20,000 nt of DNA from an uncultured virus (IMG/VR IMGVR_UViG_3300025131_000020) (IMGVR_UViG_3300025131_000020), one strand, 5' to 3'. Shown: positions 1 through 19,629, counted from the stretch's first letter. Notes: generated by a model not told the origin, from the sequence alone. Numbers and translations: made by a program.

Positions 1-3000
1 ATCTCTTCTAAAGCAAGCCTTTGAGTTCTCAGGGTGGATATTCTTTATTCCGTATCTAAATCCGCGAGATCCAGTTGAATTTGGGTGAGCGTGGGTGTAT
101 GTGAGAACATTGTTGATCTGATTATACAGCTTACCTTTTTTATTTGTGGACCACCATGTAAAATCTATCATTCCCGGCGTTCTTGAAGACTGTCTTACAC
201 CGGATCCGTATCCCACCTCAAAGAGAATCATCTTTATAATTGTGCTATTGTGTGCATAGAAAGTTCCCCTGCCGAAGAATAGGGATTCCCCAAAAATTGC
301 AAGAGCTGTATTTTCATCAATATTTCTAACAGGATTTCCAGAATAAGGCCACGGCATTCTGTCATTACCCCTCTCTTGATAATAGTAGGGAGGATCAAAA
401 ACTATTGTATTTTTTGAGCCTGTTGATTGAAGCTTAGCAGCATTTGTTCTACTTGCATACGTCCATAAATCTGGCATGAGTGTATCATAAAATCTCTCAG
501 AATCATCATATAGTGTGACTGATCTCTGAAAAGATCCTCCCCGGGGGTCAGCAGTACCTCTGACGAAGCTTCCAGCAACTCCTCTTGCTTGATCTAGCCT
601 GCTACTTTCTCCAGACGTTCCGCCTGAAAATCCAGAAATTGTAGGAGGGTTCGTCGATATATTTGTGGATATTGTTCTATTTCCAAGAAGCCCTTTTACA
701 TCCTGGGCTAGCTTTAGAATAGGCGGATTTGTTGCTAGCTTAACGACATCTATCTTTCCGTTATGACCATTTGAGTGTTCTATGCAAGCCTTTAAAGAGT
801 CTGCAATCTCAACAGTAGTTCCGTTAAAGTCATACTTTGGAGGATTTGTTGTCAGGTCTTGAGATGCGGCACCCACATAAGCCTTTGATGTTCCATCTGT
901 CGAGATAATTGTAATCGTATTTCCAATTGCTCCCATTGGTGATGTTGGGATTGTTATTCTGGCAACAGCTTCAGCACCAGCTCCATGAGGATAGTCAGAA
1001 GAAAGCATAGAGCCTGTTACGAGATTATCAGAATAATTTCCTGCATTTGCATGCTCAGAGGATATGTCGTACTGATCAACGATCTCTTCCTGGAGGGCTT
1101 CATGGATGGCATCTGATGTTAGGTGTTGGTTTAGTCCTCCGTGGAACTCAACTTGATCACGAATTAATGATCCGTAGAGTGTGATTGTGTGATTAGAAAG
1201 AGGTGATTCCCATTCGGGAGCGGTTTCCGGTGTGTCTGAAAAGTCATCAGGTGATATGATTCTCAGATGAGATCCAGAGAAGTGACACTGACCACCGCGT
1301 GGGTTTAATCCGGCATTTCCAGATCCGGTTATCATGGTATTAAATCCAGGAGAAATTGCCGCGTCTAGGCCAAGAATTATCTCGTCCTCAGGGAATAGAA
1401 GATATGGTGAGATAGCTGACTGACTGTAGTCAATAATCCTAGCCCTTCCGTCTGTTGCATCGAAGTGATCAGCAAATTCTGTCTGAACAGTCTTCTTATC
1501 ACCGAACGGTCTTATGACTCTTGGATCTAGCTCATAGATCTCAGATCCCAGCTGACGTCGGGCAGAGTTTGAATCAGGTTGATACTCAATACCTGTATTT
1601 GGATCTGTTGTGATTCCAGCGCCATTGCAGAATTGTGAAAATGTCCACTTTCCATAGCTTGCTGTCACACCCGCCTTCCCCGTGTAGATGGAGGGACGAG
1701 CTGGATCGTAGGCGATGCCGGGACCTCGCTTTCCACCATCGAAGAATGCCTTGTGAGTCGTTCCTCCTGGCCAGTAATGATATATTTTAGGAACTCTTCT
1801 TGATGCCGTTGCATCTTTTGGTGATGCTGAGTTGAAGACAGCTGAGACACCATTAAAACCCTCAGAGGCAACAGCTGGAATAAGATTCATATTGACAGAT
1901 CCAGTGAATTTGCTTATAATCCGAGACCCGCCTTTGATGCCCATATTGTGCATGAAGGCTGGTGTGTTAATAGGCCTATAAGCGTAATATCCTTCGGTTG
2001 TTCCCGCTGATCCAGAAGTAAAGACTTTTTCCTCATAGAATGTCATAACACCGCTACAGACTAAGAATCTCTGACTTCCTGAAACATCAAATGCAGAGTC
2101 TACTCTAAAGTTCTCAGATGGATTTGTAGCAGGTGTTGTTGACCACTTTCCACCCCTAAAGCTTCCAGACCTGTTTCTTCTCTCCTGTCTATAGATAAAG
2201 AACACATAATCATCCTGATGCCTGGTGTGTGTCCCTTTAGCAGTTGTTCCATCAATATTCCCTGCGTACTGCCTCTGTGCAGTTACATTTAAATTAACAA
2301 CAACCTTTTCAAGCAAGAAAGGGTGTTGAATAAAGCTAGACATCTTAATTGCCTGACTTGATGTGGCATGATATATTGTCTTATTTGGTGCAAATGATGC
2401 AATTGTAGGTGATCCGATTTTATGATAAAAGAACGGAGCTAGAAGGCCTGTATTTGTACCATAAGTGAATGTATTACCAGGTGCAGTAGACCAATCAGGG
2501 GGAGACGATCCACTTTCAATCACCTGTGCAGCTGAAAACATCTTATGCCTGCAGGGAGCAAACTGAGAGGGGTATGAATTTGTACCGCTTACAATATCAT
2601 GTGTTGGTTGAGCTTCTGAATTCATTCCAACTGCAGCAAAGTCGTATTTTATGTCTGCACCTGTGACCGGATCAGAGAATCCAATCTGCTCCCATCTCTT
2701 AAGAGAATTATTCCAATAGGCAAAACCTGTCTTACTTGCTCTTCCGGCTGAAACTGTATCTAGTATTGAGTATCTTTTTATTGGCGTTCTTGATAATTCA
2801 AGTGTCTCTGTTGGTGTGATATCAAGATGAATCATCGTCTTGCTTGAGAGCCTGGATGTGAATCCTTCCATGACATCTCTTGATGTGCCTGTTAGATAGT
2901 ATGATGAGCTTGAAAGAGGTATTGTCTCAATGACTGATGATCCGGCTGAATCCACACGTGTGATTGGGGGAAGGCTAACAGCTCGTGTATCATCAAATGG

Positions 3001-4434
3001 CCCTGATTCAATTCCAGGCGTGAATTCAATGTGATTATCTGAGACTCCTTTTACAACTGTTCTCGTAATTGTCCCTATTGATGACGAAGGGTATAAAAAA
3101 TTATCCCTAGATCCCGATTGTAGAACTTGAGGATATGAGACACCGTGTGCTCCTGTGAGAAACAGACCAAGCCCTTTTTCATTGGAGAAAACAACTGTCT
3201 TTCTATCGTCGAAAAATGTGTTATAGTTTCCCTTTGTGAGCTTAGATCCTGCTGGTGTTCTTAAATTTGTAGGATATGACCCGGTTCTACAATCCCTTCT
3301 CTTTAGTTCAAGACGAACTGGTGGGCTGATAATTCCAGATCTATTTCTATAATATCCGTTTCTTGCAGCGTATAGTGCACTTGCAACATTTGCGATGACT
3401 GCACCAGACTGGTAGGGATAGGGAACATCTTTCCAAAATGCAACCTCTGCTATCTCACCTTTAAATCTCTTTGTATAGCTTGTTGCAACGTAAGACCCAT
3501 TAACCTGCTTTTGACCACCTATAGTAAGCTCAGGAAGATTATAAGACCCAGCCATTCCACCAAAAGAGGCATTTGTCTTTGTTGCGGCCATCCTTCTACC
3601 GTTAATGTATATGTGTGTGTCCATGGGCTGTCCAGCAGCCAGTGTAGTTCCTGTGCACCAGACGAATATGTGAACCCATTTGTTGTCTAGACATCCGTGA
3701 TCTGTTCCTGTCACATCTATGTCAGTAAATTTTTTATCCATCCTTGTCTCAACATAGTCTGATGCCTCAGCAACAGCGCCCTCATATAGCCTAAAGACTA
3801 GCTGATCAGTGGAGTTATCAACATAGAGTCTATATAGTTGTCTATCATTTGTTGATCCGCCGGCATCCTCTTGTCCCATACAAAGAATGGTATCGTCATC
3901 TGATGATCCCGCCTCTCTTTTAACCCAAGCTTGAAGACAGAATCCCAGTAAAAAAGATGCTGATGGTGTAAAGTTAGCATGACCAATGTTGCTTTCCGCA
4001 ATAGCAAGAGCGCCTGCGTCATTGATAACTACAGACTGCGGCCTTCTAGTAATCGGACCATCGACAACATTGAACGGATTATCTGAGCCGTATTGTAGAC
4101 CAACAGTCCCTACCTTTGTTCCGTTATAGGGAGTTGCAACTGCAGGTGGAAGCATGTTGAGTGCTGCTGGATTCTTATCAACAAGCCTCATCTGCCACCA
4201 GGAGGTCAGATATTGGGAAAAGCTATACTCTAGTGCTGTTGATCCGTGAAGACCTTTGACATTTCTCGACACACCTCCGGACCTACTGATATGATCATCA
4301 ACTGTCCTTCTTGAGCATCCGACTGTCCTAACAGAGAAATTTTGTCTGAGATCTGGGAAATAGTTGTTAAGCTTTGTAGTTCTTCTAAGATCTCCGAGCT
4401 GCCTATTGCTCTTGCCTTTTTCTAAATCACTCAT
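1..4434 (-). CDS. Large virion structural / receptor-binding protein with N-terminal LamG (concanavalin A-like) domain; 3'-partial, at least 1478 aa
   Basis: Absent from the ORF track. I read the minus frame from ATG 4434-4432 (ATGA overlap with the upstream TGA stop) to base 1 and found no stop codon. It begins MSDLEKGKSNRQLGDLRR and reaches the window edge at FRYGIKNIHPENSKACFRRD. LamG-type motifs at about 3430-4215: YLTSWWQM, FCLQAWVK, KWVHIFV, IYINGR, LTIGG, FKGEIAEVAFW. It is the last gene of the baseplate cluster in this window. Confidence 0.85.
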   Translation of the reverse strand, partial: MSDLEKGKSNRQLGDLRRTTKLNNYFPDLRQNFSVRTVGCSRRTVDDHISRSGGVSRNVKGLHGSTALEYSFSQYLTSWWQMRLVDKNPAALNMLPPAVATPYNGTKVGTVGLQYGSDNPFNVVDGPITRRPQSVVINDAGALAIAESNIGHANFTPSASFLLGFCLQAWVKREAGSSDDDTILCMGQEDAGGSTNDRQLYRLYVDNSTDQLVFRLYEGAVAEASDYVETRMDKKFTDIDVTGTDHGCLDNKWVHIFVWCTGTTLAAGQPMDTHIYINGRRMAATKTNASFGGMAGSYNLPELTIGGQKQVNGSYVATSYTKRFKGEIAEVAFWKDVPYPYQSGAVIANVASALYAARNGYYRNRSGIISPPVRLELKRRDCRTGSYPTNLRTPAGSKLTKGNYNTFFDDRKTVVFSNEKGLGLFLTGAHGVSYPQVLQSGSRDNFLYPSSSIGTITRTVVKGVSDNHIEFTPGIESGPFDDTRAVSLPPITRVDSAGSSVIETIPLSSSSYYLTGTSRDVMEGFTSRLSSKTMIHLDITPTETLELSRTPIKRYSILDTVSAGRASKTGFAYWNNSLKRWEQIGFSDPVTGADIKYDFAAVGMNSEAQPTHDIVSGTNSYPSQFAPCRHKMFSAAQVIESGSSPPDWSTAPGNTFTYGTNTGLLAPFFYHKIGSPTIASFAPNKTIYHATSSQAIKMSSFIQHPFLLEKVVVNLNVTAQRQYAGNIDGTTAKGTHTRHQDDYVFFIYRQERRNRSGSFRGGKWSTTPATNPSENFRVDSAFDVSGSQRFLVCSGVMTFYEEKVFTSGSAGTTEGYYAYRPINTPAFMHNMGIKGGSRIISKFTGSVNMNLIPAVASEGFNGVSAVFNSASPKDATASRRVPKIYHYWPGGTTHKAFFDGGKRGPGIAYDPARPSIYTGKAGVTASYGKWTFSQFCNGAGITTDPNTGIEYQPDSNSARRQLGSEIYELDPRVIRPFGDKKTVQTEFADHFDATDGRARIIDYSQSAISPYLLFPEDEIILGLDAAISPGFNTMITGSGNAGLNPRGGQCHFSGSHLRIISPDDFSDTPETAPEWESPLSNHTITLYGSLIRDQVEFHGGLNQHLTSDAIHEALQEEIVDQYDISSEHANAGNYSDNLVTGSMLSSDYPHGAGAEAVARITIPTSPMGAIGNTITIISTDGTSKAYVGAASQDLTTNPPKYDFNGTTVEIADSLKACIEHSNGHNGKIDVVKLATNPPILKLAQDVKGLLGNRTISTNISTNPPTISGFSGGTSGESSRLDQARGVAGSFVRGTADPRGGSFQRSVTLYDDSERFYDTLMPDLWTYASRTNAAKLQSTGSKNTIVFDPPYYYQERGNDRMPWPYSGNPVRNIDENTALAIFGESLFFGRGTFYAHNSTIIKMILFEVGYGSGVRQSSRTPGMIDFTWWSTNKKGKLYNQINNVLTYTHAHPNSTGSRGFRYGIKNIHPENSKACFRRD

Positions 4435-5390
4435 TTTTCTCTCTTAAGCCCACCAAATGCGATGGAGTCAGTTCCAAGTGGGTTGTTAGCATGCACAAAG
4501 CCTGCCTTGGCAGATTTATGATCTCTATCTACTAGTCCAGCTGATCTAACAGAAGATCCAGTTCCAACAAGAACTTTATAAAAACTATAGGTATCATCAA
4601 TAAATGGTGCTGATGTTACATTTATATCAGATGAATATCCTGGAGCAAATAGAACAAATCCACTTCCGTCAACCATTGCAGTTTCTGCTGAATCTATGAA
4701 AGAGTCGTAAACTGTGGATCCAGTTAAATGAGTTTCCTGTAAGATTCTATCTGATCCGTGTATTTTTTCAAAGTTTCCATCGAGAATACACGCGCTTATC
4801 TTTCTAGCTGTGAAAGGTGTTTCTGCGCCTCGGGTTGATAAAATATCTCTAATCGATAAGGGTTCAATAACACCGCTTAGTTGATCCGGATCCTTTAGCG
4901 CAGGATCCATTAATGTTGCCGGATATAGCTGTGAATCACCGGCATCTTCAATAAATGATATTGCACCACCGTAAGCAGATGTTACTCCGGAAACTATCTT
5001 AGTGTTAATCCTCATTGATGCCATATCTTCAAATGGCTCGTGATCTAAAAATAGCTTTGCCTGACCGAACTCATTGAGGCTTACAGCATGAATATTCTCA
5101 ATCCTTTCTCCATCAAATCCATCAGAAGTGAGAACTGGAAGACATCCAATTGTTGCAGTTCTATTTGTTGATGCAACGGTGGAGGGAGAATTTCTTCTAA
5201 TATATCTCTTTGATACAACACTTACACCCTGTCTAAATCTGTCAATTTTTGACGTATTCATTCCAGAAGTTGCTCTGTTCATTAGACCAAAAGAAGAGCT
5301 AACACCGATCTCTGGAAGTGAAGATTTTACAGATGACCCAGTCAGAGCCGATGGGTTTTGAAATCTATCTCTATATGGTGTAACTGGCAT
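4431..5390 (-). CDS. Hypothetical phage virion/baseplate-associated protein (319 aa)
   Basis: ORF track. GGAG Shine-Dalgarno 6 nt upstream of the ATG; tightly packed between two large structural genes; Ser/Gly/Asp-rich. No recognised domain. Confidence 0.7.
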   Translation of the reverse strand: MPVTPYRDRFQNPSALTGSSVKSSLPEIGVSSSFGLMNRATSGMNTSKIDRFRQGVSVVSKRYIRRNSPSTVASTNRTATIGCLPVLTSDGFDGERIENIHAVSLNEFGQAKLFLDHEPFEDMASMRINTKIVSGVTSAYGGAISFIEDAGDSQLYPATLMDPALKDPDQLSGVIEPLSIRDILSTRGAETPFTARKISACILDGNFEKIHGSDRILQETHLTGSTVYDSFIDSAETAMVDGSGFVLFAPGYSSDINVTSAPFIDDTYSFYKVLVGTGSSVRSAGLVDRDHKSAKAGFVHANNPLGTDSIAFGGLKREK

Positions 5391-5393
5391 CTA

Positions 5394-8300
5394 CTACTCC
5401 GAAAGAAAATCATCAACAAGATCAGAAAAGGTTGCTTCTCTCTCACTAAGTTTAAGATATATCTCATCTGATAAGTATCTCATTCTATGTCTCTCCAGAA
5501 CATGAGACTCTATAACAAAATTAACACCATTAAATCTTGTCTTTTTGGGTATTAGTTGCTCGATCATAATTCCCAGCATGGAGTCAAACCACTTAAAAAA
5601 TTCAAAAAATTGCTTAATATTAATCTTATCAACAAGACGATTAAAATAAATCTTTTTCAATTGATCGAGCTCAGGATAGACATCATCAAATATCAAGTTT
5701 GGATTACCAAGTGCATTATCAAAAAAGTCTAATGATGAAAATAAAGTCATGATATCTTCGTCAATTGCCTGAGTAATAGAGAAGTCTACTGCAAATCTCG
5801 TGTCATCGTTTGGAAGATCATCCCTTGGTATTTCAAATAGAGGAGCTTGATATGCATAATCACTATCAGACACCCTGTCTTTAGAAAAATAGCTTCTAAC
5901 CCTAACCTTTTCATCTGTCTCAGACATGTCAAATCTTGGTGAGAGATAGCTATAGTAAAACGTCTTTGGAGCGATAATCCTCTTGCTTGGCTCAAATCCT
6001 GACCCAGACATGTGAAAAAAGCTTGCTGAGTTAATTCTCGATAGTGCCGATGCTTCTAATTTCTCAGAGCTAAAAATGCTCCAAGGTGTCGCTCTTGATC
6101 CACTAAAGACATACTGTTGTGAGAAATCATCTATCTGAATTGTACCTAGAGAATTTGACTCAGTGACTATTTGATCAGTTGATGCATCAATTCTTAGTCT
6201 TCCAAATGCACCAGTAGGTGCTCTATCAAAATTAAAATTAGTCTTTGGATTATCTACACCTAAAGATTTAAAGTTTCTAGTGTGCTCTTTAAATTCTGTC
6301 TCAGAGACAGCTTTTGACCAAAATCTTATGTGCCCAACCCTGCCTGAGAAATTTGTCCACCTTGCTGCACCATATTGTGCATATGGTAGTTTAGTTGTAC
6401 CGTTTAGAAATCTAGACCCCGCGTTATATAGACTCTGTGAGCCAATAACAATAAATGGTCCCTCCCTATTGAATGTATCGTCTGCCTGCTGCTGAACGCC
6501 TCCGTCTGGAGATCCAACCAGCTCTGCCTCAAATAAAGTTCCTGTTGTAAAGTATTCTCTAATAGCTCCGTAGCTATTTCTAGCACACCTAACGTAGAAT
6601 GAAGAGCTTGCCTGAACCCCACTACCTGAGACAGGGTCGTCAGATCTATATCTTCCAAATGAAACATTCCACATATTTCCATCAAAGATGTCAGGACCTG
6701 TCAAGACAAGTCTCATTTCTGGTGATGATGTAAGCGCATTATCTGAACCGGGTCTTCCAAAAAGTTCAATCTTTCTTGAACCTGAATATGCAACTAGGTT
6801 AAAAATAACACCATGTCTCTTTGCTGTGGTATTGGTTCCTGTTGTGTGCATTCTTGCTAGGCTTTGTGTTATAAAGTGAGATCCAGTAATAATCTTTGGA
6901 ATCTGATAAACTCCCTCGTAACACCACGATCCAGATGTAAAAAGTCCATCATTTCTATTATTTGAAATTCCATGAAGATTATGATTAAACAGGGGATTTG
7001 TGTGAGGAAGCGGTCCTATGAATGCCTGATCTTTTATGTCTGGATGCTGATTGGAAAAAGTTCCAGCAGGATCTGGAAATCCTATTTCAAATCTACTTGA
7101 GCTCAAATATGGAGACATTATTCTTGGATATTGAAATGTTCCAGTTAGAAATCCCTGATAGTTAAGCTCTCCAAGTCTTGCGGCAGGAAGTGTTGTTAGT
7201 GATCCTGAAAAGTCTATAAGTGTTGATACTTCTGATTTTTTAACCCTGAGGTTCCTTAGTGTCTTCTGAGATGGTCCGCCATACTCTCTTATTCTGAGTA
7301 TATTGTCAGGCTCTATTCCTATTGAACGTATTAGCGACTTTATACTGTGAACTGTTCCTCTTGAGATTGTAATCTCTCTCATGTTTGTGAGGATTCTTCT
7401 CCATATTTGATTTTGAACATAGCTCAGAGATCCTCCAGCTCTTGACTGATCTAGAGATAGATTTTCTCCGTCTACTTGCTGTAATATGCTTGCATTGTTG
7501 AATATTCTTGGTAGTTCGATTCCAAGATACTTTCCTGCAAACAGGAGAAATGGATCTGATGCACTGTTATCTTCATCATAGTCAACATGAATTATATTGG
7601 AAAACTCATCTATAAATAATTTAATTTCATCAAATTGTTTTGCATATGAAAAGAGCAAAGCTGTTAAAAGCTGGGAGGATCCAAGCTCTCCTGTTCCAGG
7701 TATGGATGATCCTGAATAATTTCCGGCTATCTCTCCATCAATTGTATTTAGTCCTTGAAATTCTTGCCCCTCTTCAAGGTAGTGCTGGGGAATTAAATTT
7801 GTAATTAAGTTTGGATTATCATTATCATAGTAGCTTGCAGAAGTCAACAAAGATGCGTTTAGCTCGGTAATCTTACTATGCTTGGGAAATAGTATGGGTG
7901 ATAAGTCTGTATTCTCATAAATTATCGGAGCCTTAATGTCTGATCCATAGAATGAGCTGGTGCTTCTTAGAGCTATGTCGTTTTTTGCAATATAGTAATT
8001 GGCAACCCTAGAGTGTAGTGACTTACCAGAGCTGTCCAGGACAATATCGTTAACCCCTGTAGACCCACTAGGTTCATTAAATTTAAAGTAAAGCTTTAGA
8101 TCATAGGATCCAAAAATTGATTTTTTAGCATACTCTTTTTGATCTTCTACAGTTCTTGTGTTATGAAAGAATCTAAATTCATCAATTGATCCAGAAAATG
8201 TCTCAGAAGGAAAAAATTTATTAGCAGTCGAGCTTGTTACTCCATCGAGATATTGTACTGATCCAGTCCCAATTGTAAGAAATGAAGACTGAGTAAACCC

Positions 8301-9134
8301 AAAATCTCCGATCTCAACCTCGCCATCTGACTCTCCTACAAGAGACTCATTGGTATACAGCCTAACCTTATTGACACCTTCTGATCTATCACATACAGCG
8401 CATATGTGCTCAAAGCTTCCCTTCGCAATTGATCCGGATGCTATTGATGCATTGGTTCCAGAAACTACTGAAAACAATATATCCACTGCTGATGTTGATG
8501 TAGTCTCCTTTAGAAGTAGACCAAATCCGTATGAGTCATCTTCAACTCTCTGACATATTACCTGCCTACTGTTTCCAGAAGCTGCACACAATATTTGCAT
8601 CTCAATTGAAAATGATCCAGTTGTAGGATCGAGAATTTTTTCACCTGTATTTAGTTTAGAAAATTCTGGAAATAGACTTCCTGCCTGATCTCTTACCTTT
8701 ATATACGTTCCGTGCCCACCATGATCATCATGGCTTCCAGAAAAATTAAGGTATCCTATATTTTTTGGAAATCTTTGAAGAATATAGTTTTCATATCCTG
8801 TCAACGAGTCTAGAAAGATCTCAACATCTCTCCTTGAGCCGTCGAATGGAAACTCATTAATAATTCTATCAAATGCAACATTAACTTTAGATACAGCAGA
8901 ATTAAAAAATGTGTGATTTTCAAATAGACTCCAGTCAATATTTAGTTGCTGGGTAGATTTCATAGGAGACCCAGGCGGGCTATACTTGAATGATGATGTA
9001 CTTTCTATGTTAGTATCTGACAGCTCAGATAGTGACATCTCTCCTGTTCTTCCGCTTCCAATCTGAATACCTCTTATTGTAGATGGCTTAAATAGACGCG
9101 GGACGCCTAAGCTGAAAACTCTATCTTCTGACAT
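5394..9134 (-). CDS. Baseplate wedge protein, T4 gp7 / P2 gpI-like core with two LamG-like domains (1246 aa)
   Basis: The central segment LLFSYAKQFDEIKLFIDEF...FLLFAGKYLGIEL...QIWRRILTNMREITISRGTVHSIKSLIRSIGI resembles the gpI/gp7 helical core with its (K/R)GT motif. LamG-type motifs are GSFSIEMQI...FEHICAV...LTIG...FSGSIDEFRFF and SGSWCYEG...MWNVSFGR...IVIGS...FSGRVGHIRFWSKA. It lies downstream of the gp25- and gp6-like genes; TAATG overlap with the upstream gene. Confidence 0.65.
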   Translation of the reverse strand: MSEDRVFSLGVPRLFKPSTIRGIQIGSGRTGEMSLSELSDTNIESTSSFKYSPPGSPMKSTQQLNIDWSLFENHTFFNSAVSKVNVAFDRIINEFPFDGSRRDVEIFLDSLTGYENYILQRFPKNIGYLNFSGSHDDHGGHGTYIKVRDQAGSLFPEFSKLNTGEKILDPTTGSFSIEMQILCAASGNSRQVICQRVEDDSYGFGLLLKETTSTSAVDILFSVVSGTNASIASGSIAKGSFEHICAVCDRSEGVNKVRLYTNESLVGESDGEVEIGDFGFTQSSFLTIGTGSVQYLDGVTSSTANKFFPSETFSGSIDEFRFFHNTRTVEDQKEYAKKSIFGSYDLKLYFKFNEPSGSTGVNDIVLDSSGKSLHSRVANYYIAKNDIALRSTSSFYGSDIKAPIIYENTDLSPILFPKHSKITELNASLLTSASYYDNDNPNLITNLIPQHYLEEGQEFQGLNTIDGEIAGNYSGSSIPGTGELGSSQLLTALLFSYAKQFDEIKLFIDEFSNIIHVDYDEDNSASDPFLLFAGKYLGIELPRIFNNASILQQVDGENLSLDQSRAGGSLSYVQNQIWRRILTNMREITISRGTVHSIKSLIRSIGIEPDNILRIREYGGPSQKTLRNLRVKKSEVSTLIDFSGSLTTLPAARLGELNYQGFLTGTFQYPRIMSPYLSSSRFEIGFPDPAGTFSNQHPDIKDQAFIGPLPHTNPLFNHNLHGISNNRNDGLFTSGSWCYEGVYQIPKIITGSHFITQSLARMHTTGTNTTAKRHGVIFNLVAYSGSRKIELFGRPGSDNALTSSPEMRLVLTGPDIFDGNMWNVSFGRYRSDDPVSGSGVQASSSFYVRCARNSYGAIREYFTTGTLFEAELVGSPDGGVQQQADDTFNREGPFIVIGSQSLYNAGSRFLNGTTKLPYAQYGAARWTNFSGRVGHIRFWSKAVSETEFKEHTRNFKSLGVDNPKTNFNFDRAPTGAFGRLRIDASTDQIVTESNSLGTIQIDDFSQQYVFSGSRATPWSIFSSEKLEASALSRINSASFFHMSGSGFEPSKRIIAPKTFYYSYLSPRFDMSETDEKVRVRSYFSKDRVSDSDYAYQAPLFEIPRDDLPNDDTRFAVDFSITQAIDEDIMTLFSSLDFFDNALGNPNLIFDDVYPELDQLKKIYFNRLVDKINIKQFFEFFKWFDSMLGIMIEQLIPKKTRFNGVNFVIESHVLERHRMRYLSDEIYLKLSEREATFSDLVDDFLSE

Positions 9135-10672
9135 TACTCATCCACTCTAAATTTATTGCCGACACTTGTAAAGACTCTATCAGTTCCAAAATCCTTTATA
9201 AGGAAGTCAAAAGAATATACTCTTCCTGAAGGCAGTGAGTCCATGTAGAAGTCAAAAAACATTCCATCAGAATCTGTTGATAAGAGCGTTCCTTTATATG
9301 CAGTATCAAATGGGATAATTATTTTTCCATTAAATGAATCTCTTACTCTATAATACATCTGTGTAAATATTTCACTTGTTGACTCAAGGGGCTTTTTCTT
9401 AAAGACGACCTCTTTTCCTAGATTTTCTACAAAGACTCTCATTCTAGCTTTTTCAAATGATCTATAGCTTGATTTAAGTGTTGTTACATTTAAAAATAGC
9501 TTATCTGGAGCATTATCAAATGATGTCCTTTCTACAGATTTTGCAACAAATGAACCCGTATGAAATCCGTATTTATAGTCTGTAGAACCCCAATACGTTG
9601 TAAATGTTGCAGATGCAGCATTAACTATCTCTGTTCTTAGAGATCCTGTTTCAAACTCACCTAGAGCAAAAGTTGCAGAATATACGCCTGCAATATAATT
9701 TTTTCCAATCTTGTGCTGTGAACCGGTTATAGATTTTGTAAAAAATGTTCCTTGCTCAAGTGATCCAGACTCTATTCTTAAAACTATACAATTATCACCC
9801 TTTATCTCATTTCCAGTTCTCCCGTCCATTGCGTGAGAAGGCTCATTTCTATGAAAATTATTTAAGAAAAGAGACCCAGTTAGAGTAAAGTAAAACTTTT
9901 TATGATGATCTTCTTGCCTATCATTGTAGTGAACAATTAGTTGAGGCCTATGTTCAACTGTTGTTGCATGTCTTGAAGAGAATCTTTTAACAAATCTCGT
10001 TCTTTCATCAGTCTCCATTGTTCCAGAGTATGAAATTCTAAATCCATGATCAGGTATTTGCTCTGCTAGAACACCAGATACAATTGTTGTAACGTCCACT
10101 CTAAAGTCTTCATATCCGGTTTCAAATAATTGATCTTTCCAGAGAAATACCGTACCATTTCCATCACTAAGATTTCCGCTTGTAATAATGTCTAAGTCAT
10201 CGCTTCCTAGAAGGCCTTCCTTATTTGCACCATCAAATGTCCATGTAGTAGGAGACTCACCAGATACTGATGCTGTAATAAAGTTAGATGAATCTAGATC
10301 AGAAAAAGATATTATATCTCTTCCTATTCCCTCATCAAATGATTTAGCTAGGGGTGCTGCTAGTATTCTAAAGTTAGAGGGTGTTGTCTGACCGCCGTAC
10401 ACATCAGTTAACTTTAGGAAGCACTTAAAAGAAGAATGAGAAATATCTAAGACAGATCCTGTAATAGACCGGAGTGGGTCAAGCTCAAATTTTATAAGTA
10501 TTCTTGATAGCTCTGTTGGTGTTGTATCAGATCCAGATATAGACTCAGCATAAAGCTTAAATAGATCTAATGTTCCTGCCTGGCCGGTATTTGCGTCAGT
10601 TCCACGAATATCATTATTAATGATCTTATTTGTAATGTACGTGTCTTTACTAGCTGTTAATATTCTATACAT
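9134..10672 (-). CDS. Virion structural protein, N-terminal DNRLRE/CBM-like beta-sandwich and possible C-terminal Ig-like domain (512 aa)
   Basis: Motifs ASKDTYI...SRILIKF...FRVDVTTIV...HGFRI...FSSR...RPQLIV match my recollection of the DNRLRE-type domain pattern. It lies between the gp6- and gp7-like genes and has a GGAG Shine-Dalgarno. Confidence 0.5.
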   Translation of the reverse strand: MYRILTASKDTYITNKIINNDIRGTDANTGQAGTLDLFKLYAESISGSDTTPTELSRILIKFELDPLRSITGSVLDISHSSFKCFLKLTDVYGGQTTPSNFRILAAPLAKSFDEGIGRDIISFSDLDSSNFITASVSGESPTTWTFDGANKEGLLGSDDLDIITSGNLSDGNGTVFLWKDQLFETGYEDFRVDVTTIVSGVLAEQIPDHGFRISYSGTMETDERTRFVKRFSSRHATTVEHRPQLIVHYNDRQEDHHKKFYFTLTGSLFLNNFHRNEPSHAMDGRTGNEIKGDNCIVLRIESGSLEQGTFFTKSITGSQHKIGKNYIAGVYSATFALGEFETGSLRTEIVNAASATFTTYWGSTDYKYGFHTGSFVAKSVERTSFDNAPDKLFLNVTTLKSSYRSFEKARMRVFVENLGKEVVFKKKPLESTSEIFTQMYYRVRDSFNGKIIIPFDTAYKGTLLSTDSDGMFFDFYMDSLPSGRVYSFDFLIKDFGTDRVFTSVGNKFRVDE

Positions 10673-10677
10673 TTAAG

Positions 10678-12507
10678 TTACTCCGCCATCCCTACAATGT
10701 CGCTTGATGGATACCTCATTTCAAAAATCCCGCCCGCTGGGGGAAAGACTATTCCCTTGAATGTTGCATCTTCTATATTTAAAATTACATTACTGTAAAT
10801 CTTACCAGAAGTAATTCCGCTTAAGTTTATCATCTCTATCTCAGACAGTGATATAACGCCGGATGTTTTAATTATAATTTTCTGAATTTCTGTAAGAAAT
10901 ATTGGCTGATCTATCTGAAAATTTACTATCTTAAAATAATTCTTAATTTTTGCATTAATTGACTGAATTACAGCATTTTTATTTGCAACTCCGTTGACAA
11001 CTATACTATACTTGATTCCAAAATTAACAATCTGTGAATCAACAATATCAATTGCATCTGAAATAAGCCTATTTTCATTTAAGAATAGTGCAAGATTATC
11101 CTTTAGTGAATCCGGAGCAGTAACAAGCTTTCCGGACCTATTTCTACTAACGATATAAAGCATAGTAGCTAGAGGATTATCAGGATTTGATCTTACTCCT
11201 GCCCTGAATATTCTTCCAAACCTAGACGGCATCATATAAACATGCGACAAAAGGTCATCTTTTGTTACAATTCTAGATTGAGAATTCTTTGCAGAGACAA
11301 CGAGCCGCTTAAGATCCTGAAGTGATGGCGGATTTTCTCCGCCAGCAGCTCTTTGGGGATTTCTAATATTTATAGATGCCCTTATTTTTGACACAAGAGA
11401 TCTTGACACTGAATTGTTAAATGTTGTCAAAAGTGAAGATATTCCATTTATTGATCCAGGTCCGACATTGTGGGACAATCCTCCTCCATACCTGTATTTT
11501 ACAGTTATTGTTGTGCCTATGGGAGATATTCCTAACGTTTGTGTTCTTAGCAGATTGTTTGGATCAATAGAGAATCTTGAAATAGTCTTCTTTCCATAAA
11601 GTGGAAGTGAAAGTTCACTTGGATCAGGTATAATGTCATCATCTAAAGTGTCTGCCCTGCCAGATCCAAATCTTAAAGTTGTTACTCCCGTTAGGGCATC
11701 ATTTTCAACAACATACCTATAGGGTGCAGGAATTAGCTCTAAGTTTTCAGGAACTTCAATTGCATCAGTTGCTAAATTTACCACTCTTTTATACACTACA
11801 TTTTGAACTAAAGAAGAAACCTCATGATATTCATTACCTTCACTATCTATAACTGCAATAATTTCTGTAACATCAGTTCCAGGTAGTGATATTTTTCTAA
11901 ATGGAACAAATGTATTTGGAATAGGAAATGGTTTTGTAGATGTCGTACCAGACACACACACACCAGTACGTTTAAGAGTATAGAATGAAGGGGGATCTCC
12001 TGCATTTGAGGGTGTTATTTGATGAAATAGATAGTTCCCTTCTTCATCTTTCTCAGAAAAATCTAAATCAGAGATAAGTGTAAATGTAACTCCTCTTGAA
12101 GATACTGTTGTTCCCTCATTAATTATCGGTAAATTATTATGAATCGGAACAGATGAATCGCTAGAATCAGATGAAATAGTTATAAAAAAATCAACCTCTG
12201 CAGAAGCAGGTGCTGCGCCAGCAATTGGAACACCAGCTGCCCTAAGAAGCTTCTGAATATTTTTATCCTCTACAGCTGTTTCAATATTTAGCTCATTAAA
12301 CTGATGATCAAGATAGTAGCTCATGACATCGCCAACATATGCGTTTAGCTCAAGAAGTAGCCCACCTAAGCTTGCCTCAGAAAAATCTTGAATGCTATCT
12401 GGAAAAAAAGTTTTTGCATATAAGAGAAGATCTGCTCTAAAGCTGTTAAAATCTTTATTAAGATATGACCTTAGCTCACTCTTTTTTAACTTAGTGTTAA
12501 CTGACAT
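10678..12507 (-). CDS. Baseplate wedge protein, T4 gp6 / P2 gpJ-like (609 aa)
   Basis: Typical N-terminus YLNKDFNSFRADLL..AK.FFP....DFSEASLGGLLLELNAYVGDVMSYYLD; also LRFGSG, ITVKYRYGGG and AAGGENPPSL...QSRIVTKDD. Directly follows the gp25-like gene. Confidence 0.88.
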   Translation of the reverse strand: MSVNTKLKKSELRSYLNKDFNSFRADLLLYAKTFFPDSIQDFSEASLGGLLLELNAYVGDVMSYYLDHQFNELNIETAVEDKNIQKLLRAAGVPIAGAAPASAEVDFFITISSDSSDSSVPIHNNLPIINEGTTVSSRGVTFTLISDLDFSEKDEEGNYLFHQITPSNAGDPPSFYTLKRTGVCVSGTTSTKPFPIPNTFVPFRKISLPGTDVTEIIAVIDSEGNEYHEVSSLVQNVVYKRVVNLATDAIEVPENLELIPAPYRYVVENDALTGVTTLRFGSGRADTLDDDIIPDPSELSLPLYGKKTISRFSIDPNNLLRTQTLGISPIGTTITVKYRYGGGLSHNVGPGSINGISSLLTTFNNSVSRSLVSKIRASINIRNPQRAAGGENPPSLQDLKRLVVSAKNSQSRIVTKDDLLSHVYMMPSRFGRIFRAGVRSNPDNPLATMLYIVSRNRSGKLVTAPDSLKDNLALFLNENRLISDAIDIVDSQIVNFGIKYSIVVNGVANKNAVIQSINAKIKNYFKIVNFQIDQPIFLTEIQKIIIKTSGVISLSEIEMINLSGITSGKIYSNVILNIEDATFKGIVFPPAGGIFEMRYPSSDIVGMAE

Positions 12508-12511
12508 TTTT

Positions 12512-12985
12512 CTATCCTATACAGTATAAAATAACTTCTATTCCCTTATTTTGCACTTGTAACTTGGGAATACTATAAAAAATCTTAATTGACACCTGTG
12601 CTATTGAATCGGTATCTGGGGGATCATTGAATGATGATTCAAAAGAATCTAGATTAAGATATGGCATATACTTCTTAACAGCAGATCTAATTCTCAACAT
12701 TGCTTCATTGTCAAAATCATCGTGAGAGAGTCTTTCTGTTGTTAGCTCCCTTAGATTTGCACCAAATTCATATTGACCAAGCCGCTCTCCGTGGTTGGTC
12801 AATAGAAGATTTTTTAAGTTATCTTGAACCTGAGATATGAGACTAAAGTTCATATCAAATATTCCTGACCTTCCTGTTCCAAGTCTAACTGGTGTCTTTA
12901 TACCAAATGGAACTGGATCAAAACTCTTATTAAACTTTCTATCAGAGACTCTATCTCCAACACTTTTGAAACTTCTTGTAGCCAA
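12512..12985 (-). CDS. Baseplate wedge subunit / sheath initiator, T4 gp25 / P2 gpW-like (157 aa)
   Basis: QVQDNLKNLLLTNHGERLGQYEFGANLREL...IRSAVKKYMPYL fits the GPW_gp25 signature. TTG start with AGGAG upstream. Confidence 0.92.
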   Translation of the reverse strand: MATRSFKSVGDRVSDRKFNKSFDPVPFGIKTPVRLGTGRSGIFDMNFSLISQVQDNLKNLLLTNHGERLGQYEFGANLRELTTERLSHDDFDNEAMLRIRSAVKKYMPYLNLDSFESSFNDPPDTDSIAQVSIKIFYSIPKLQVQNKGIEVILYCIG

Positions 12986-12993
12986 TTTACCTT

Positions 12994-13014
12994 TCTCCTT
13001 TTACTAAATATATA
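12994..13014 (-). promoter_or_regulatory. RBS (AGGAG) and candidate AT-rich late-promoter element (TATATATTTAG) upstream of the gp25-like gene
   Basis: The 64-bp intergenic gap (12986-13049) is the largest in the window and reads ...gggTATATATTTAGtaaaAGGAGaaaggtaaaTTG on the minus strand. The RBS is seen directly; the promoter role is inference. Confidence 0.35.
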
Positions 13015-13049
13015 CCCGGATAAATTATCATATCCCTCTCTTAACTTAG

Positions 13050-14309
13050 TTAAGTGCCAAGTTCTTTAATGGCGTTAGCGACTGCCTCAAAAATTAAACC
13101 GTTCCCCAAAATTCTCCCTACAAGAGCAATTGCTAGATATCTCACTACTCTGTTTATCATTACAATTACAGATGCAACCTTAAGAACTGCACCAGCTACG
13201 AGACCAAATGCTGCTTCAAATAAACCAACGACTATTTCAATAAGAAATGCTATTAGCCCTGCAACACCCTGTGCAAGCGCGGCAATAAGTGCCAATATAA
13301 AGTCAAGAGTAGGGATAATTGATGTAAAAAACTCAAGAATTGCGTAAAAGAATTCAAGAATTTCCGAAAATATATTTGGAAGCATTAGGTTAAAATTAAT
13401 AATTGGAGGCTGAAGGTTGAAAAACTCTATGATAGCCTCTGGAATCCTTAGAACCCATTCTGGAATTGACGGAAGTTCAGGGAGGGGTATGTTTAAAAGA
13501 GCAAGCACAGCAGCAAGAATTGCATCTTTGATCTCCTGTATAATTGTATCTTTAATAAAGATGACTATAGCAGCCAGTGCCTCAATTATTGCATTTTTAA
13601 TCTTGTTTTTAAGATTCTTTAATTCCCTAATAGCAGCCTGTATGTTCAAAATTATCATCACAATTGATTCAATTATGTCACCAATGGCTGGTATGTTGAA
13701 TAGTGCTAGAAGTTGTTCAATCCCCTCTAGCAAGGTTACCGGTATTGATGCAATTATTGCTGCAGCTTGTACCATCTTCTCGATGATTTCTTCAATGCCA
13801 AGATCATCAAAATTTAATTGAATTTTATCTAAAAATTCCTCAATCTTATCTCCTAAGTGCTCCTTGAATTCATTTAGCTTTTCTTTAACCATGTCTACAA
13901 TCTGAGAAACGACCTCTTGTATCTTGTCCTTAATAATTTTGATGATTATTGTTGGATCAATATACCCAAGAGGCCTTCCGATAGGAGAGTCGATTGACAT
14001 ATTGAGAAATTCTGCGATATTGACTAAAAATTCTCCAAAAGAGTTTGAAAATGCATCAAAGTCTTCTAGGTTTCCGCCCGCTTCTCTGACAGCGGCGGCG
14101 GCATCGGGCATAGCTGGGATTTCTAAAGGAATAAGTGTTTGTGTTACACCTGGAATGACATGGGTTAGCCCAGGAGACGCTGCTGTTCCATTCTCAACAA
14201 GAGAGAGTGAGCCTTCCCAAATGCTGACCACTTCAGAGTCTGACAGCTCCATGGCTCCAGTGTCTGGATTTTCACTTAAGATGTTTGCAGCTTCTAGTGC
14301 GTTTGCCAT
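13050..14309 (-). CDS. Hydrophobic/amphipathic alpha-helical protein of unknown function, coupled to the spike gene (419 aa)
   Basis: Ile/Leu/Ala/Glu-rich with no Cys, a Pro-rich hinge (NIPLPELPSIPEW) and a long apolar C-terminal region. Its start overlaps the spike stop (TAATG). Confidence 0.75.
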   Translation of the reverse strand: MANALEAANILSENPDTGAMELSDSEVVSIWEGSLSLVENGTAASPGLTHVIPGVTQTLIPLEIPAMPDAAAAVREAGGNLEDFDAFSNSFGEFLVNIAEFLNMSIDSPIGRPLGYIDPTIIIKIIKDKIQEVVSQIVDMVKEKLNEFKEHLGDKIEEFLDKIQLNFDDLGIEEIIEKMVQAAAIIASIPVTLLEGIEQLLALFNIPAIGDIIESIVMIILNIQAAIRELKNLKNKIKNAIIEALAAIVIFIKDTIIQEIKDAILAAVLALLNIPLPELPSIPEWVLRIPEAIIEFFNLQPPIINFNLMLPNIFSEILEFFYAILEFFTSIIPTLDFILALIAALAQGVAGLIAFLIEIVVGLFEAAFGLVAGAVLKVASVIVMINRVVRYLAIALVGRILGNGLIFEAVANAIKELGT

Positions 14310-15718
14310 TATTTAATCAGGACCTTTGTGGCAAATGTTGAGAGATTCATGGAAGTAGCGACTCCCTGGTCGTCTGGAACGCCGACAGATCCGCCAGCAG
14401 AGGTGACCAGGCTAACGGGTATTGAGATCTCTCCTCCAGTTTGAACAGTCTTTGCAGAAGGTGCTGCAAGTATAGCCTTGTCAGCATCATCTCCTCCAAG
14501 CTTAATAACTCCCTCTGGTCCGGGAATAAACACTATATTTCCATCAGACTTAAGAATTACTGATGCGCCAGTTGTTCCAGCTCCTACAACTATCTTGAGA
14601 TCATCCCTTGCAACAAGTCGAACCTGATCACTCTTTAAAACAATTGCAGGAAGATCTCCATCTGAACGATCCATTCCCTCAATATCTATTTCAAACTTAT
14701 CATCAGCTGAAGTCTTCATTGAAAGATAGATTCTTGATAGATCATTTGAAAAGCTAGCTAAGCCCTCACTTATATTCTCACTTCCCCTAAGAAGCTCTCT
14801 TCCTGGATTTTTTGATATCTCATTGTAGCCCCTTTCATTGATTATGCCGCCTTCCCTAAATGCAGCAGAAGTATTTTTTGTCTGACCTCTTCCTGCACAT
14901 ATATCAATTGCACCCTGACCTGGATCAAACATCGATTTTGGAAATGGACCCTTTGGATTTACGCCTGTCTTTCCAATCTCTGTTCCAAGAACTATGCTTG
15001 TGTTGTTTGATCCCTGCAGAATTAAGTCACCTACCTCTTTTGGAACTCTTGGGACAGGCTCTCCAATGAATTGATTTGTTGTGGAAAGATTTCCCAGAGC
15101 TGTAGATTTTCTTAAAATATCTAAATACGGTCGCTTACCTCTTAAAGTTCTTTGCTGTGATGTTGATAGAGTTCCATTTGGAAATCGTGGAACTCTCACC
15201 TGATCACTTGCCCCATCACCCGGAACGTCTAGCGTTTCAGTAAGCTTTGTTCCGCTATCCCTGCTATTTTGTGAAATCCTGTCTGCATGGGTGTAGTTTA
15301 AGTCATCAACCTGGAGATCTACACACTTTCTTGTCATCCAGTATCCCAGTGTTCCTGTGGATAGCCTTTCATAGACAACCCAGACCTGCTCACCAGGCTT
15401 TACAGGTAAACAGATGTGAGGTGAAAAGAACGGATAAAATATCTCAAGCTTTCCGTATTCACCATTTCCGTCTGAAACCCTGTAGCCGAGTATGCTATTT
15501 CTAGGCATTTTTGAAATAAATTGAGAGTTTAATACGCCCTTAACTACACCTCCGGATTGCTTTAATGAGCGAAGGGCTTCGGGAGGAAGAGAAGCGGGAT
15601 TAGAAATAAAATCCGCAACTACTATTGTATGAAATATTCTTCCCTGCCTCCTTTCTCTTCTATCACTCCTTCTGCCGTTAAACCCTAACGGATCATTTGG
15701 ATTATAATCTCTAGACAT
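14309..15718 (-). CDS. Baseplate hub / central spike, gp5/VgrG-like (N-terminal OB-fold, C-terminal beta-strand repeats; 469 aa)
   Basis: FYPFFSPHICLPVKPGEQVWVVYE...GYW resembles the gp5/Vgr OB-fold motif P..GE.V.V.F. Short beta-strand repeats follow (GDLILQGSNNTSIVLG, AIVLKSDQVRLVARDDLKIVVG, SVILKSDGNIVF, VIKLG). It lies upstream of the gp25/gp6-like genes. No lysozyme domain is visible. Confidence 0.65.
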   Translation of the reverse strand: MSRDYNPNDPLGFNGRRSDRRERRQGRIFHTIVVADFISNPASLPPEALRSLKQSGGVVKGVLNSQFISKMPRNSILGYRVSDGNGEYGKLEIFYPFFSPHICLPVKPGEQVWVVYERLSTGTLGYWMTRKCVDLQVDDLNYTHADRISQNSRDSGTKLTETLDVPGDGASDQVRVPRFPNGTLSTSQQRTLRGKRPYLDILRKSTALGNLSTTNQFIGEPVPRVPKEVGDLILQGSNNTSIVLGTEIGKTGVNPKGPFPKSMFDPGQGAIDICAGRGQTKNTSAAFREGGIINERGYNEISKNPGRELLRGSENISEGLASFSNDLSRIYLSMKTSADDKFEIDIEGMDRSDGDLPAIVLKSDQVRLVARDDLKIVVGAGTTGASVILKSDGNIVFIPGPEGVIKLGGDDADKAILAAPSAKTVQTGGEISIPVSLVTSAGGSVGVPDDQGVATSMNLSTFATKVLIK

Positions 15719-15719
15719 T

Positions 15720-16085
15720 TCAACTTCCTATCTCATTAAAAATATCATCTGGATTAATTATTTCTGTCTTGCTTTCTGCTTTGTCTATAATCTCTGCAAG
15801 CCTTAAAATTTGATCATTAGATTTTGACATTCTCTCGAGATATTTGGACATAATTGGTCCAAACATTGTGTGATTTGCTGCATTTCCCTGAGATTGCTTC
15901 ATTAGCTCCATAAATAAAATAGAGGCATTTTCTCTATCATTAAGAGCATTCTCGTAAATTTCTTTCCAAAGAAGCTTCTTTTTATCTTCAGTGCTTTCAA
16001 TTGCATCTAAGATATCACCGAAGCTTTCTATTTTTTTATTTTTTTTATTAATTCTCTTTTGGAGATCAGATATTTTATTTGACAT
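15720..16085 (-). CDS. Small helical phage protein, possible terminase small subunit (T4 gp16-like; 121 aa)
   Basis: The size and helical pattern IYENALNDRENASILFMEL...GPIMSKYLERMSKSNDQILRLAEII recall the gp16-type oligomerisation helices. The ORF is well supported; the function is tentative. Confidence 0.4.
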   Translation of the reverse strand: MSNKISDLQKRINKKNKKIESFGDILDAIESTEDKKKLLWKEIYENALNDRENASILFMELMKQSQGNAANHTMFGPIMSKYLERMSKSNDQILRLAEIIDKAESKTEIINPDDIFNEIGS

Positions 16086-16097
16086 TTTTTAGTACCC

Positions 16098-16838
16098 CTA
16101 AAAGAATATATCAAACTCTCCCTGTTTCACGAGAGTTTTGTAGTGTTTTCTAATTGATGACATGGCTATTGAAAGCTGTTTTGGGTTAAGATTTGATATA
16201 TCTCTCAGGTAAACAAATATTGCCCTCTTATTTAAAAGGTCTATATCATCAATTTTTTCAAAAAGAGTTATAATGGCATCTATACACGCAATCTCATTCT
16301 CACCTGACAACTTATCCTTTATCTCAACCATAAGCGAAAAAAGATTCTGCATAGATTCTCTTTTTATCATCTCAGTATCTTGGGGAGGTACAACCTTGTA
16401 GCTTTCTATTGCACCCATGTCCCTTCTGCTTATTGACAGCGGGTCATCTAGGCTTACCTGCCGCCTTAGCTGCTTTGTTCTTTGCTTACTTTTTATTATG
16501 AGCCAGTTTTTTGCTACAACATTAAAATATGAAAACGCCTTTGTTCCACGAGTATGGTCAAATTTATTTATCGTCTCATAGAGAAAGACAACACAATCAG
16601 ATTTGAGATCTTCAAATGAGGAATGAGAAGACTTAAAACCGTGAATAAATATTAAATTTTCAACTAGCTTATCAAATGCTGGGAAGATTTCTGAGACGTA
16701 TATGTTCTCACGATCTATTTGCTTTTCTAGTGATTGAAACTTTATTATTGCATCATGAGTTCCCTGGTGAAAGTATAAATTTCTCTTTCCCTTCCCCCTT
16801 TTTCTTCTAATTTTGATAAATTTCTTTTTTCCCTTCAC
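16098..16838 (-). CDS. Phage RNA polymerase sigma factor, gp55-like / sigma70 region 2 (246 aa)
   Basis: FEDLKSDCVVFLYETINKFDHTRGTKAFSYFNVVAKNWLI fits sigma region 2.2-2.4 (DL....L...I.KFD..RG.KF..Y). Basic N-terminus; GTG start with GGAGG Shine-Dalgarno. Confidence 0.72.
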   Translation of the reverse strand: MKGKKKFIKIRRKRGKGKRNLYFHQGTHDAIIKFQSLEKQIDRENIYVSEIFPAFDKLVENLIFIHGFKSSHSSFEDLKSDCVVFLYETINKFDHTRGTKAFSYFNVVAKNWLIIKSKQRTKQLRRQVSLDDPLSISRRDMGAIESYKVVPPQDTEMIKRESMQNLFSLMVEIKDKLSGENEIACIDAIITLFEKIDDIDLLNKRAIFVYLRDISNLNPKQLSIAMSSIRKHYKTLVKQGEFDIFF

Positions 16839-16858
16839 GCCCTTTGTCCTCCATTGAA

Positions 16859-18318: not shown

Positions 18319-18331
18319 AAAATAATATTTC

Positions 18332-19579: not shown

Positions 19580-19587
19580 TGATTTAT

Positions 19588-19622: not shown

Positions 19623-19629
19623 AAGTAAA

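Follow-up and report, generated by a model that had tools for sequence, protein, structure and literature searches.

A short φ-[ST]-[GA]-S-φ motif under protein-level selection in the outer tail proteins of a large clade of aquatic myoviruses, a possible acceptor site for phage-encoded O-glycosylation

This work concerns a short peptide motif in the tail genes of an uncultured virus, IMGVR_UViG_3300025131_000020, of which a stretch of 20,000 nucleotides (hereafter, the window) was analysed together with its relatives. We found that φ-[ST]-[GA]-S-φ, where φ stands for a hydrophobic residue, is a short linear motif under protein-level selection in the outward-facing tail proteins of a large clade of aquatic myoviruses, many of them jumbo phages. 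The outward-facing set comprises the peripheral baseplate and fibre proteins encoded downstream of the gene for gp6, an inner baseplate wedge protein, and the outer domains of the tail sheath. Our best guess, put forward tentatively, is that the motif serves as an acceptor or recognition site for phage-encoded O-glycosylation.

The core of the motif, [ST]GS, had been counted by hand in the original prediction, and our counts are identical: 14 (11 SGS and 3 TGS) in the protein of 1246 amino acids (aa), 7 in the 512-aa protein, 3 in the 319-aa protein and 12 in a large open reading frame (ORF) with 1478 codons in the window, while the other ten ORFs (3066 aa) contain none. The zero in these ten ORFs is not significant alone (2.19 expected, p = 0.11). 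For the wider pattern [ST][GA]S, 45 sites vs 10.4 expected were found in the four proteins and 0 vs 3.69 in the other ORFs. The enrichment clearly survives shuffling: the pooled 36 [ST]GS sites compare with 6.17 (standard deviation 2.45) in residue shuffles, none of 3000 reaching 36, and with 19.2 in dipeptide-preserving shuffles, none of 500 reaching it. The earlier estimate of about one SGS in the 1246-aa protein was likewise sound (1.40 computed vs 11 observed). In a scan of all tripeptides, TGS ranked first (17 vs 2.57) and SGS second (19 vs 3.61), with Bonferroni-corrected values for 8000 tests of 1.8e-5 and 8.4e-5, respectively, and no other tripeptide was significant. Their anagrams stay at chance, SGS being found 19 times vs 1 for SSG and 7 for GSS, and TGS 17 times vs 3 for SGT, 5 for TSG, 3 for STG, 3 for GTS and 5 for GST. 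Local shuffles within windows of 10-40 aa gave 6.5-7.3 sites with a maximum of 19; the anagram controls and these shuffles rule out local Ser/Gly-rich patches as the cause. As had been described, the sites are dispersed, with diverse flanks, and are often preceded by a hydrophobic residue (20 of 36 sites, 1.9 expected). The composition of the four proteins (positions 1-10672) is unusual in other respects as well: Gly-Ser is doubled (68 vs 33.1 expected), Gly-Asp is strongly depleted (5 vs 19.3) and [ST]GD is absent (0 vs 5.5).

The flanks of 161 sites, pooled from three lineages about 30% identical in gp6, define a motif wider than the one first noted. At position −1 hydrophobic residues (I, F, V) occur at 1.9 times the background, Asp is found at none of the 161 sites, and there is strong avoidance of Asn and of charged residues; at position +3 hydrophobics (F, L) reach 1.6 times the background. 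In the window's four proteins the presence of one hydroxyl residue goes with that of the other when Gly is between them (odds ratio 4.2, p = 1e-6); with A, N, D, S, T, P or V as the centre no such coupling was detected there. The larger pool gives a joint frequency of [ST] and S of 13.1% around G, 7.2% around A and 1-3% around every other centre, N (1.6%) and D (0.9%) being at the background level; within the frame hydrophobic-x-Z-y-hydrophobic it rises to 31% for G and 24% for A, and the centres V, L and T give 0%. It is size that constrains the centre; a requirement for positive phi would have favoured N and D, which is not observed. Nor does the pattern reflect a general preference for Ser on exposed strand faces.

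The proposal that the pattern arises from selection on the protein, and not from expansion of a DNA repeat, is borne out by reading frame, codon usage and a cultured relative, Microcystis phage Mel-JY01. Many sites of the window have the form NCN-GGA-TCN and thus include the word GGATC. On the coding strand this word occurs 38 times in codon frame 0 vs 3 times in the other frames, and on the antisense strand 14 times without a comparable excess. In the relatives, codon usage at the motif tracks the background of each genome. In Mel-JY01, where Gly is mostly encoded by GGT, 0 of 45 sites contain GGATC and the peptide is enriched just the same. The near-confinement of GGATC to frame 0 and the enrichment of the peptide without GGATC in Mel-JY01 therefore indicate that selection acts on the peptide.

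The window belongs to an assembly that consists of a single virus contig of 20,255 bases, and the genome-wide test was therefore made on relatives. More than 600 related contigs were found, and the hosts of the clade include at least Bacteroidota and Cyanobacteria. These relatives count as jumbo phages, the genome G002 measuring 322 kb (93% complete) and G005, which has terminal repeats, 197 kb. Homologues of the 1246-aa protein (n = 120, 43-72% identical) carry on average 11.7 sites vs 1.98 expected. When observed and expected [ST]GS were compared family by family over 78 related viral loci, we obtained 407 vs 61.5 for the 512-aa family and 549 vs 90.8 for the 1246-aa family, about 3.3-fold enrichment for both the 319-aa family (42 vs 12.9) and the large-ORF family (171 vs 50.3), and 11 vs 8.3 and 1 vs 4.4 for two glycosyltransferases of the GT4 family described below. 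Each of the 64 loci with at least 400 aa of the 512- and 1246-aa families is enriched, 3.2-9.0-fold. Among cultured phages, Flavobacterium phage immuto and Mel-JY01 come closest by gp6 (about 30% identity); in either of them almost all genes downstream of gp6 are enriched 4-15-fold, in contrast to gp6 itself, gp25 and the genes upstream. In a second set of 80 loci, found with gp6 of the immuto/Mel-JY01 side, enrichment (3.0-8.9-fold) is seen in all 39 loci that have 1000 aa or more encoded beyond gp6 on its downstream side. The pattern holds across lineages with as little as 25-30% identity between their proteins. The gp6 homologues of the 78 loci are themselves depleted in the motif (12 vs 45.1 expected), unlike the non-structural genes of G001, the closest large relative, which lie near expectation.

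Within genomes, the motif is restricted to particular proteins and domains. The ORFs that pass Bonferroni correction genome-wide, 6 of 93 in G001 and 3 of 336 in G002, are homologues of the window proteins and a few other large unannotated proteins of the structural region. Other large Ser/Gly-rich proteins of G001 show no excess (814 aa, 0 vs 1.83; 1038 aa, 0 vs 1.74; 1473 aa, 3 vs 2.44). Enrichment is mild in two long sheath paralogues of G001 (5 vs 1.44 and 6 vs 1.63), and all 11 of their sites fall in the extra N-terminal or insertion part, none in the conserved sheath core. Phage immuto shows enrichment in its sheath (7 vs 1.28) and in a 373-aa protein (12 vs 1.26), and none in its head, portal, terminase and replication proteins or in two proteins annotated as "tail fiber". 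In T4, 26 proteins show no enrichment (8 observed vs 11.9 expected; 0 in gp7, gp10 and gp12, 2 vs 1.3 in gp34, 4 vs 2.2 in gp37), and neither do the proteins from gp7 to wac of the marine T4-like Vibrio phage K571 (2 vs 4.4). The motif is therefore not a generic property of phage tail fibres or of marine phages, and with immuto and Mel-JY01 enriched and K571 not, marine habitat or a host-specific system is unlikely to be the cause. As to the sheath itself, two tandem paralogues of about 1000-1170 aa are a feature of G001 (C1:87308-94023), G002 (C1:296551-302608) and G004, each paralogue of the relatives having 650-780 extra residues ahead of the conserved core.

The positions of the motif turn over while its number is kept. 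It had been asked whether the motifs are mostly fold-conserved positions; this is true of only part of them. Among 121 sequences of the 1246-aa family, 100 alignment columns bear the motif, of which 10 are occupied in at least half of the sequences (58% of all instances) and 81 in fewer than 10%; the count per protein is 11.7 ± 2.9. One of the well-occupied columns is residue 734, retained in 116 of 120 homologues. Lineage-specific insertions are enriched 4.1-fold (62 vs 15.2) and the core 5.9-fold. From the conserved columns and the enriched insertions together it follows that the motif is kept at some sites and continually gained elsewhere. It resides in unrelated types of domain: Laminin G (LamG), a sandwich resembling carbohydrate-binding modules (CBM), insertions of the sheath and loops within a helical part. 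A factor that reads a linear motif is favoured by this diversity of folds and contexts, by the turnover, by the enriched insertions and by the restriction to outward-facing tail proteins. We propose that the motif may serve as a recognition or acceptor site for such a factor acting in trans and encoded by the phage; since the hosts belong to different phyla (Flavobacterium, Microcystis), any modifying enzyme would be phage-encoded.

A prime candidate lies in the window itself, where two adjacent genes encode GT4 glycosyltransferases of 411 and 415 aa (44.2 and 41.5 bits, respectively, vs a cut-off of 26.4 for PF00534). Both keep the EX7E signature (EGFGLPLLE and EGFGLATLE), its first Glu being present in 43 of 43 and 38 of 38 family members, so that a catalytically dead, GtfB-like partner in the pair is unsupported. 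Both proteins fall in virus-only clusters. All 32 marine loci whose upstream flank extends over at least 6.9 kb have both genes, and an orthologous adjacent or near-adjacent pair was found in immuto, Mel-JY01 and the complete genome G005; an apparently broken GT4 in the latter was dismissed, as the match ran upstream of the start codon and the ORF is intact. Among 50,697 phage records, the L411-type GT4 was present only in immuto (4 records) and Mel-JY01. All four complete or near-complete motif-rich genomes possess the M415/L411-type pair together with two GT2 genes, and in three of them the pair forms part of, or adjoins, a glycan-biosynthesis cluster. The cluster of immuto, with the pair at its head, is annotated as a GT2, two WecE-type aminotransferases, a methyltransferase, a mannosyltransferase, a "pilin glycosylation protein" and a nucleoside diphosphate (NDP)-sugar epimerase. 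In G001 and G002, GT2s, further GT4s, a GDP-mannose 4,6-dehydratase and a UDP-glucose/GDP-mannose dehydrogenase are encoded just upstream of the pair and the baseplate genes, and the glycan cluster of G001 also includes a NeuB-family synthase. In the marine clade and in immuto the pair is syntenically preceded by a PD-(D/E)XK nuclease gene (locus L208, immuto 47964-51883; G001:C1:28543-31852; G002:C1:235648-239510).

An uncultured genome of 484 kb, LR756508, provides a contrast. By gp6 it groups with Mel-JY01 (44%) and immuto (38.5%), and it has homologous downstream proteins, yet neither an orthologue of the GT4 pair nor a GT2 was found in it. Its motif density is the lowest seen, with 5 sites in the first 3087 aa downstream; in its homologues of the two main families there are 2 sites in 1820 aa, vs 15 in Mel-JY01, 8 in immuto and 21 in the window, and sites conserved in other lineages are replaced.

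Taken together, these data lead us to suggest that the conserved GT4 pair and its glycan-biosynthesis cluster may O-glycosylate Ser/Thr of the motif, which would put a sugar coat on the tail surface. The motif would then be read by an enzyme, and that enzyme would presumably be the GT4 pair. A more specific version, that the clade uses a five-residue sequon for a multi-enzyme glycan pathway of its own, headed by the GT4 pair and coating the baseplate periphery, the fibres and the outer domains of the sheath but not the head, is possible, though we regard it with some doubt. Full-text searches of the literature returned no description of such a motif and no mass-spectrometry or glycan-stain data on glycosylation of these virions.

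Several points weigh against glycosylation. LR756508 is not a clean negative lacking any glycosyltransferase: it retains about 3-fold enrichment over expectation and encodes one or two GT1-family proteins and two NDP-sugar epimerases, and as a single case the contrast is suggestive of a link but not decisive. The window GT4s score far below the cut-offs of protein O-glycosyltransferase families (TIGR02918, GtfA, 15.5 bits vs 574.6; NF047880, SdgA, 15.2 bits vs 800), other GT4 families outscore these two, and a comparison with the PDB gave generic GT4 matches only. The target of the glycan cluster could be the host envelope or something else. The GT4 pair belongs to the core genes of the clade, such that its co-occurrence with the motif may reflect shared descent only, and the counts over homologues are not phylogenetically independent. 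The capsid proteins of immuto are not enriched. As for the motif, hydrophobic flanks around a tiny centre would also be expected from a packing constraint, Ala occupies position 2 in about 9% of the sequences where columns are well occupied, and most modelled sites lie in ordered beta structure of high predicted local distance difference test score (pLDDT), some of them inside strands.

The explanation that comes closest, an intrinsic packing motif, is nearly as likely as O-glycosylation in our estimate, and should itself be considered possible rather than probable. It would make the motif a local packing or strand-edge element of beta-rich accessory domains shuffled among outer tail proteins, with a tiny centre between two core-facing hydrophobics and the hydroxyls on the other side, and no trans-acting factor. 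The flank preferences and the size-limited centre are what such an element predicts, as are the 10 well-occupied columns, conserved across 43-72% identity. In a strand, φ, G/A and φ would lie on one face and both hydroxyls on the other. The AlphaFold model of the 512-aa protein (pLDDT 84.1) is all-beta, with three sandwich-like domains, the N-terminal one CBM-like, and Foldseek matched it to chondroitin- and alginate-binding CBMs (8wab, 7vbo); a DNRLRE assignment (NF033679) falls short, at 19.8 bits vs a cut-off of 34 and over positions 113-163 of 164 only. In the 1246-aa protein (residues 1-1200 modelled, pLDDT 81.0), residues 168-330 match Laminin_G_3 (PF13385; 39.8 bits vs a cut-off of 27.6, E = 6.5e-10), and the top Foldseek matches of this domain are LamG, pentraxin and PAPP-A LamG-like structures, with a probability of 1.00. 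The sequence FSGSIDEF at site 314, suspected earlier of being a LamG fold position, indeed lies within the PF13385 match, on a LamG strand, which also fits a packing element; at this site 120 homologues have SGA in 56 cases and SGS in 52. This is the only LamG domain found in the 1246-aa protein, which has no internal repeats in a BLAST self-comparison and unrelated flanks around its sites, so that one motif per tandem LamG-like repeat, an arrangement suggested by the spacing of the sites, is not supported.

Most of the 21 modelled sites are in or beside strands of confident models, and some domain sharing exists among the enriched proteins: residues 1105-1309 of the large ORF form a module common to another enriched protein and a sheath paralogue of G001. 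The sites nevertheless share no single secondary-structure context: loops and strand starts account for 5 each, positions between close strands, after strands and inside strands for 3 each, and helix starts for 2; these contexts resemble those of other Gly-centred (x-G-x) tripeptides, except that helices are avoided. A beta-hairpin turn motif of type I′ or II′ is not supported, as only 3 of the 21 modelled sites lie between close strands and N/D are not favoured. No solved homologues giving a three-dimensional context were found. A packing element has further difficulty with the φ-x-G-x-φ frame alone, which is only 1.24-fold enriched (142 vs 114), and with the occurrence of the motif in unrelated folds, at non-homologous positions, with high turnover and in insertions. 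Finally, beta-rich Ser/Gly-rich proteins of the same genomes and the homologues in LR756508 do without the motif, and the tail proteins of T4 and Vibrio phage K571 lack the enrichment.

It is rather improbable that the motif is a non-covalent binding or recognition site for another phage factor, for instance a tail-assembly chaperone, or that it mediates contacts among the outer tail proteins. The same context-independent pattern, specific to a set of proteins, would be expected as for O-glycosylation, and nothing here separates the two; on the other hand, no candidate partner was identified, and dozens of sites per protein exceed the usual need for docking motifs. Together with some unforeseen explanation, this one takes the remaining probability. 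A DNA-level cause, in which a GGATC/GATC word (a methylation or restriction site) or a codon-pair bias yields the Gly-Ser codons, would accommodate the presence of GGATC in 22-26 of the 36 window sites, the roughly 2-fold excess of GATC across the window (89 vs 37.9 expected in 1-10672; 51 vs 31.1 in 10673-20000) and a first codon ending in T at 21 of the 36 sites, but is virtually excluded by the frame, antisense, codon and Mel-JY01 data given above and by a third-base T bias that is not seen clade-wide. The GATC excess across the window is explained only in part by Gly-Ser codons.

The layout of the window is given in Table 1; all its genes are on the minus strand. The gp6-like and gp25-like genes, with 0 motif sites, form the boundary of the enriched gene set, and among the four large proteins downstream of them only the 1246-aa protein has a Pfam domain. 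The large ORF is open through to the contig end (at least 1571 aa), and the extra stretch adds 0 sites. In G001 the 319-aa ORF and the next large ORF correspond to one fused protein of 1335 aa (G001:C1:43625-47632), in which the first ~365 residues of the window's large ORF have no counterpart. The 246-aa protein shows weak similarity to sigma-70 region 2 and SigK, below cut-offs (Pfam E = 0.0045; NCBIfam 22 bits). When window positions 1-19974 were compared with the reverse complement of the contig, the check for full-length identity was negative, and the translation of the large ORF was identical at the given offset.

Table 1. Genes of the window, listed in the order of transcription, and residue positions of [ST]GS in the four enriched proteins.
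Feature	Position in window	Strand	Family	Remarks	[ST]GS sites
5′-open ORF	19630-19998	−	none assigned	place corresponds to PD-(D/E)XK nuclease gene of relatives	
GT4 glycosyltransferase pair, 415 and 411 aa	17149..19579	−	PF00534	adjacent	
97-aa ORF		−		downstream of GT4 pair	
246-aa weak sigma-like protein	16098-16838	−		between GT4 pair and baseplate genes	
ORFs of 121, 469 and 419 aa		−		after 246-aa ORF, before gp25-like gene	
gp25-like (157 aa) and gp6-like (609 aa) proteins	10678..12985 (gp6-like 10678-12507)	−	phrog_6 (gp6-like), PF04965 (gp25-like)	inner baseplate wedge	
512-aa protein	9134..10672	−		directly downstream of gp6-like gene; all-beta	7: residues 46, 71, 265, 302, 316, 342, 372 (window 10529-10537, 10454-10462, 9872-9880, 9761-9769, 9719-9727, 9641-9649, 9551-9559)
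1246-aa protein	5394..9134	−	Laminin_G_3 (residues 168-330)	helical and further beta domains	14: residues 132, 172, 233, 290, 314, 356, 474, 643, 734, 750, 784, 836, 1011, 1043
319-aa protein	4431..5390	−			3 (all TGS): residues 17, 223, 277
Large ORF, 1478 codons in window	1..4434	−		open at window edge	12: residues 384, 440, 641, 756, 785, 807, 844, 1036, 1053, 1140, 1338, 1454

If the motif is indeed a sequon, it would provide the first sequence rule for virion glycosylation in phages, and a glycan coat directed by a sequon would be described for the first time on a phage tail. Widespread aquatic giant phages would then sugar-coat their tails, which would bear on adsorption, virion stability and recognition by hosts and grazers, and metagenomic sequence would suffice for predicting glycosites. 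If it is structural instead, the motif is a sequence rule for tail accessory domains that is unusually strong and specific to the clade, and it can serve as a marker for the outer tail proteins of these phages. Either reading can be tested now with the two cultured relatives, immuto and Mel-JY01.

The virions of siphovirus mycobacteriophages are reportedly glycosylated on the capsid and the tail tube, and we know of no defined short sequon in that system. It resembles the present one in its phage-encoded glycosyltransferase genes and in the modification of virion proteins, which is putative here, and differs in that here the candidates for modification are outer tail proteins of myoviruses, with a defined, dispersed five-residue motif. 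Mycobacteriophage virion glycosylation (Freeman et al. 2023, Cell Host Microbe) is cited in a passage of PMC12582341.

Among bacterial systems, the window's genes share features with two GT4-family systems. GtfA/GtfB glycosylate serine-rich repeat adhesins, and SdgA/SdgB act on Ser-Asp repeats. The GT4 fold, two adjacent glycosyltransferase genes and serines of the S-x-S type, putative acceptors here, are common to all of them. Unlike GtfA and SdgA, the window GT4s match those families at about 15 bits only, far under the cut-offs; unlike a system with a non-catalytic partner, both keep EX7E; and in place of long repeats, the putative acceptors are single motifs dispersed in folded beta domains.

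On the structural side, site 314 has the same hydrophobic-x-Gly-x-hydrophobic register as the φ-x-G-x-φ-D-E strand of the Laminin G/pentraxin fold. The two hydroxyl residues on either side of the Gly are not known to belong to the LamG signature, and the strand accounts for 1 of the 36 sites, the whole LamG domain containing 4. As in sequon-directed glycosylation, for which N-X-S/T and the D-[ST]-[AILVMT] of Bacteroidota O-glycosylation are known sequons, we deal with a short linear motif whose number per protein is kept while its positions turn over; unlike in the Bacteroidota motif, Asp is absent at −1 (0 of 161 sites). The motif is common to phages of Bacteroidota and of cyanobacterial hosts, and a host-specific system therefore does not explain it.

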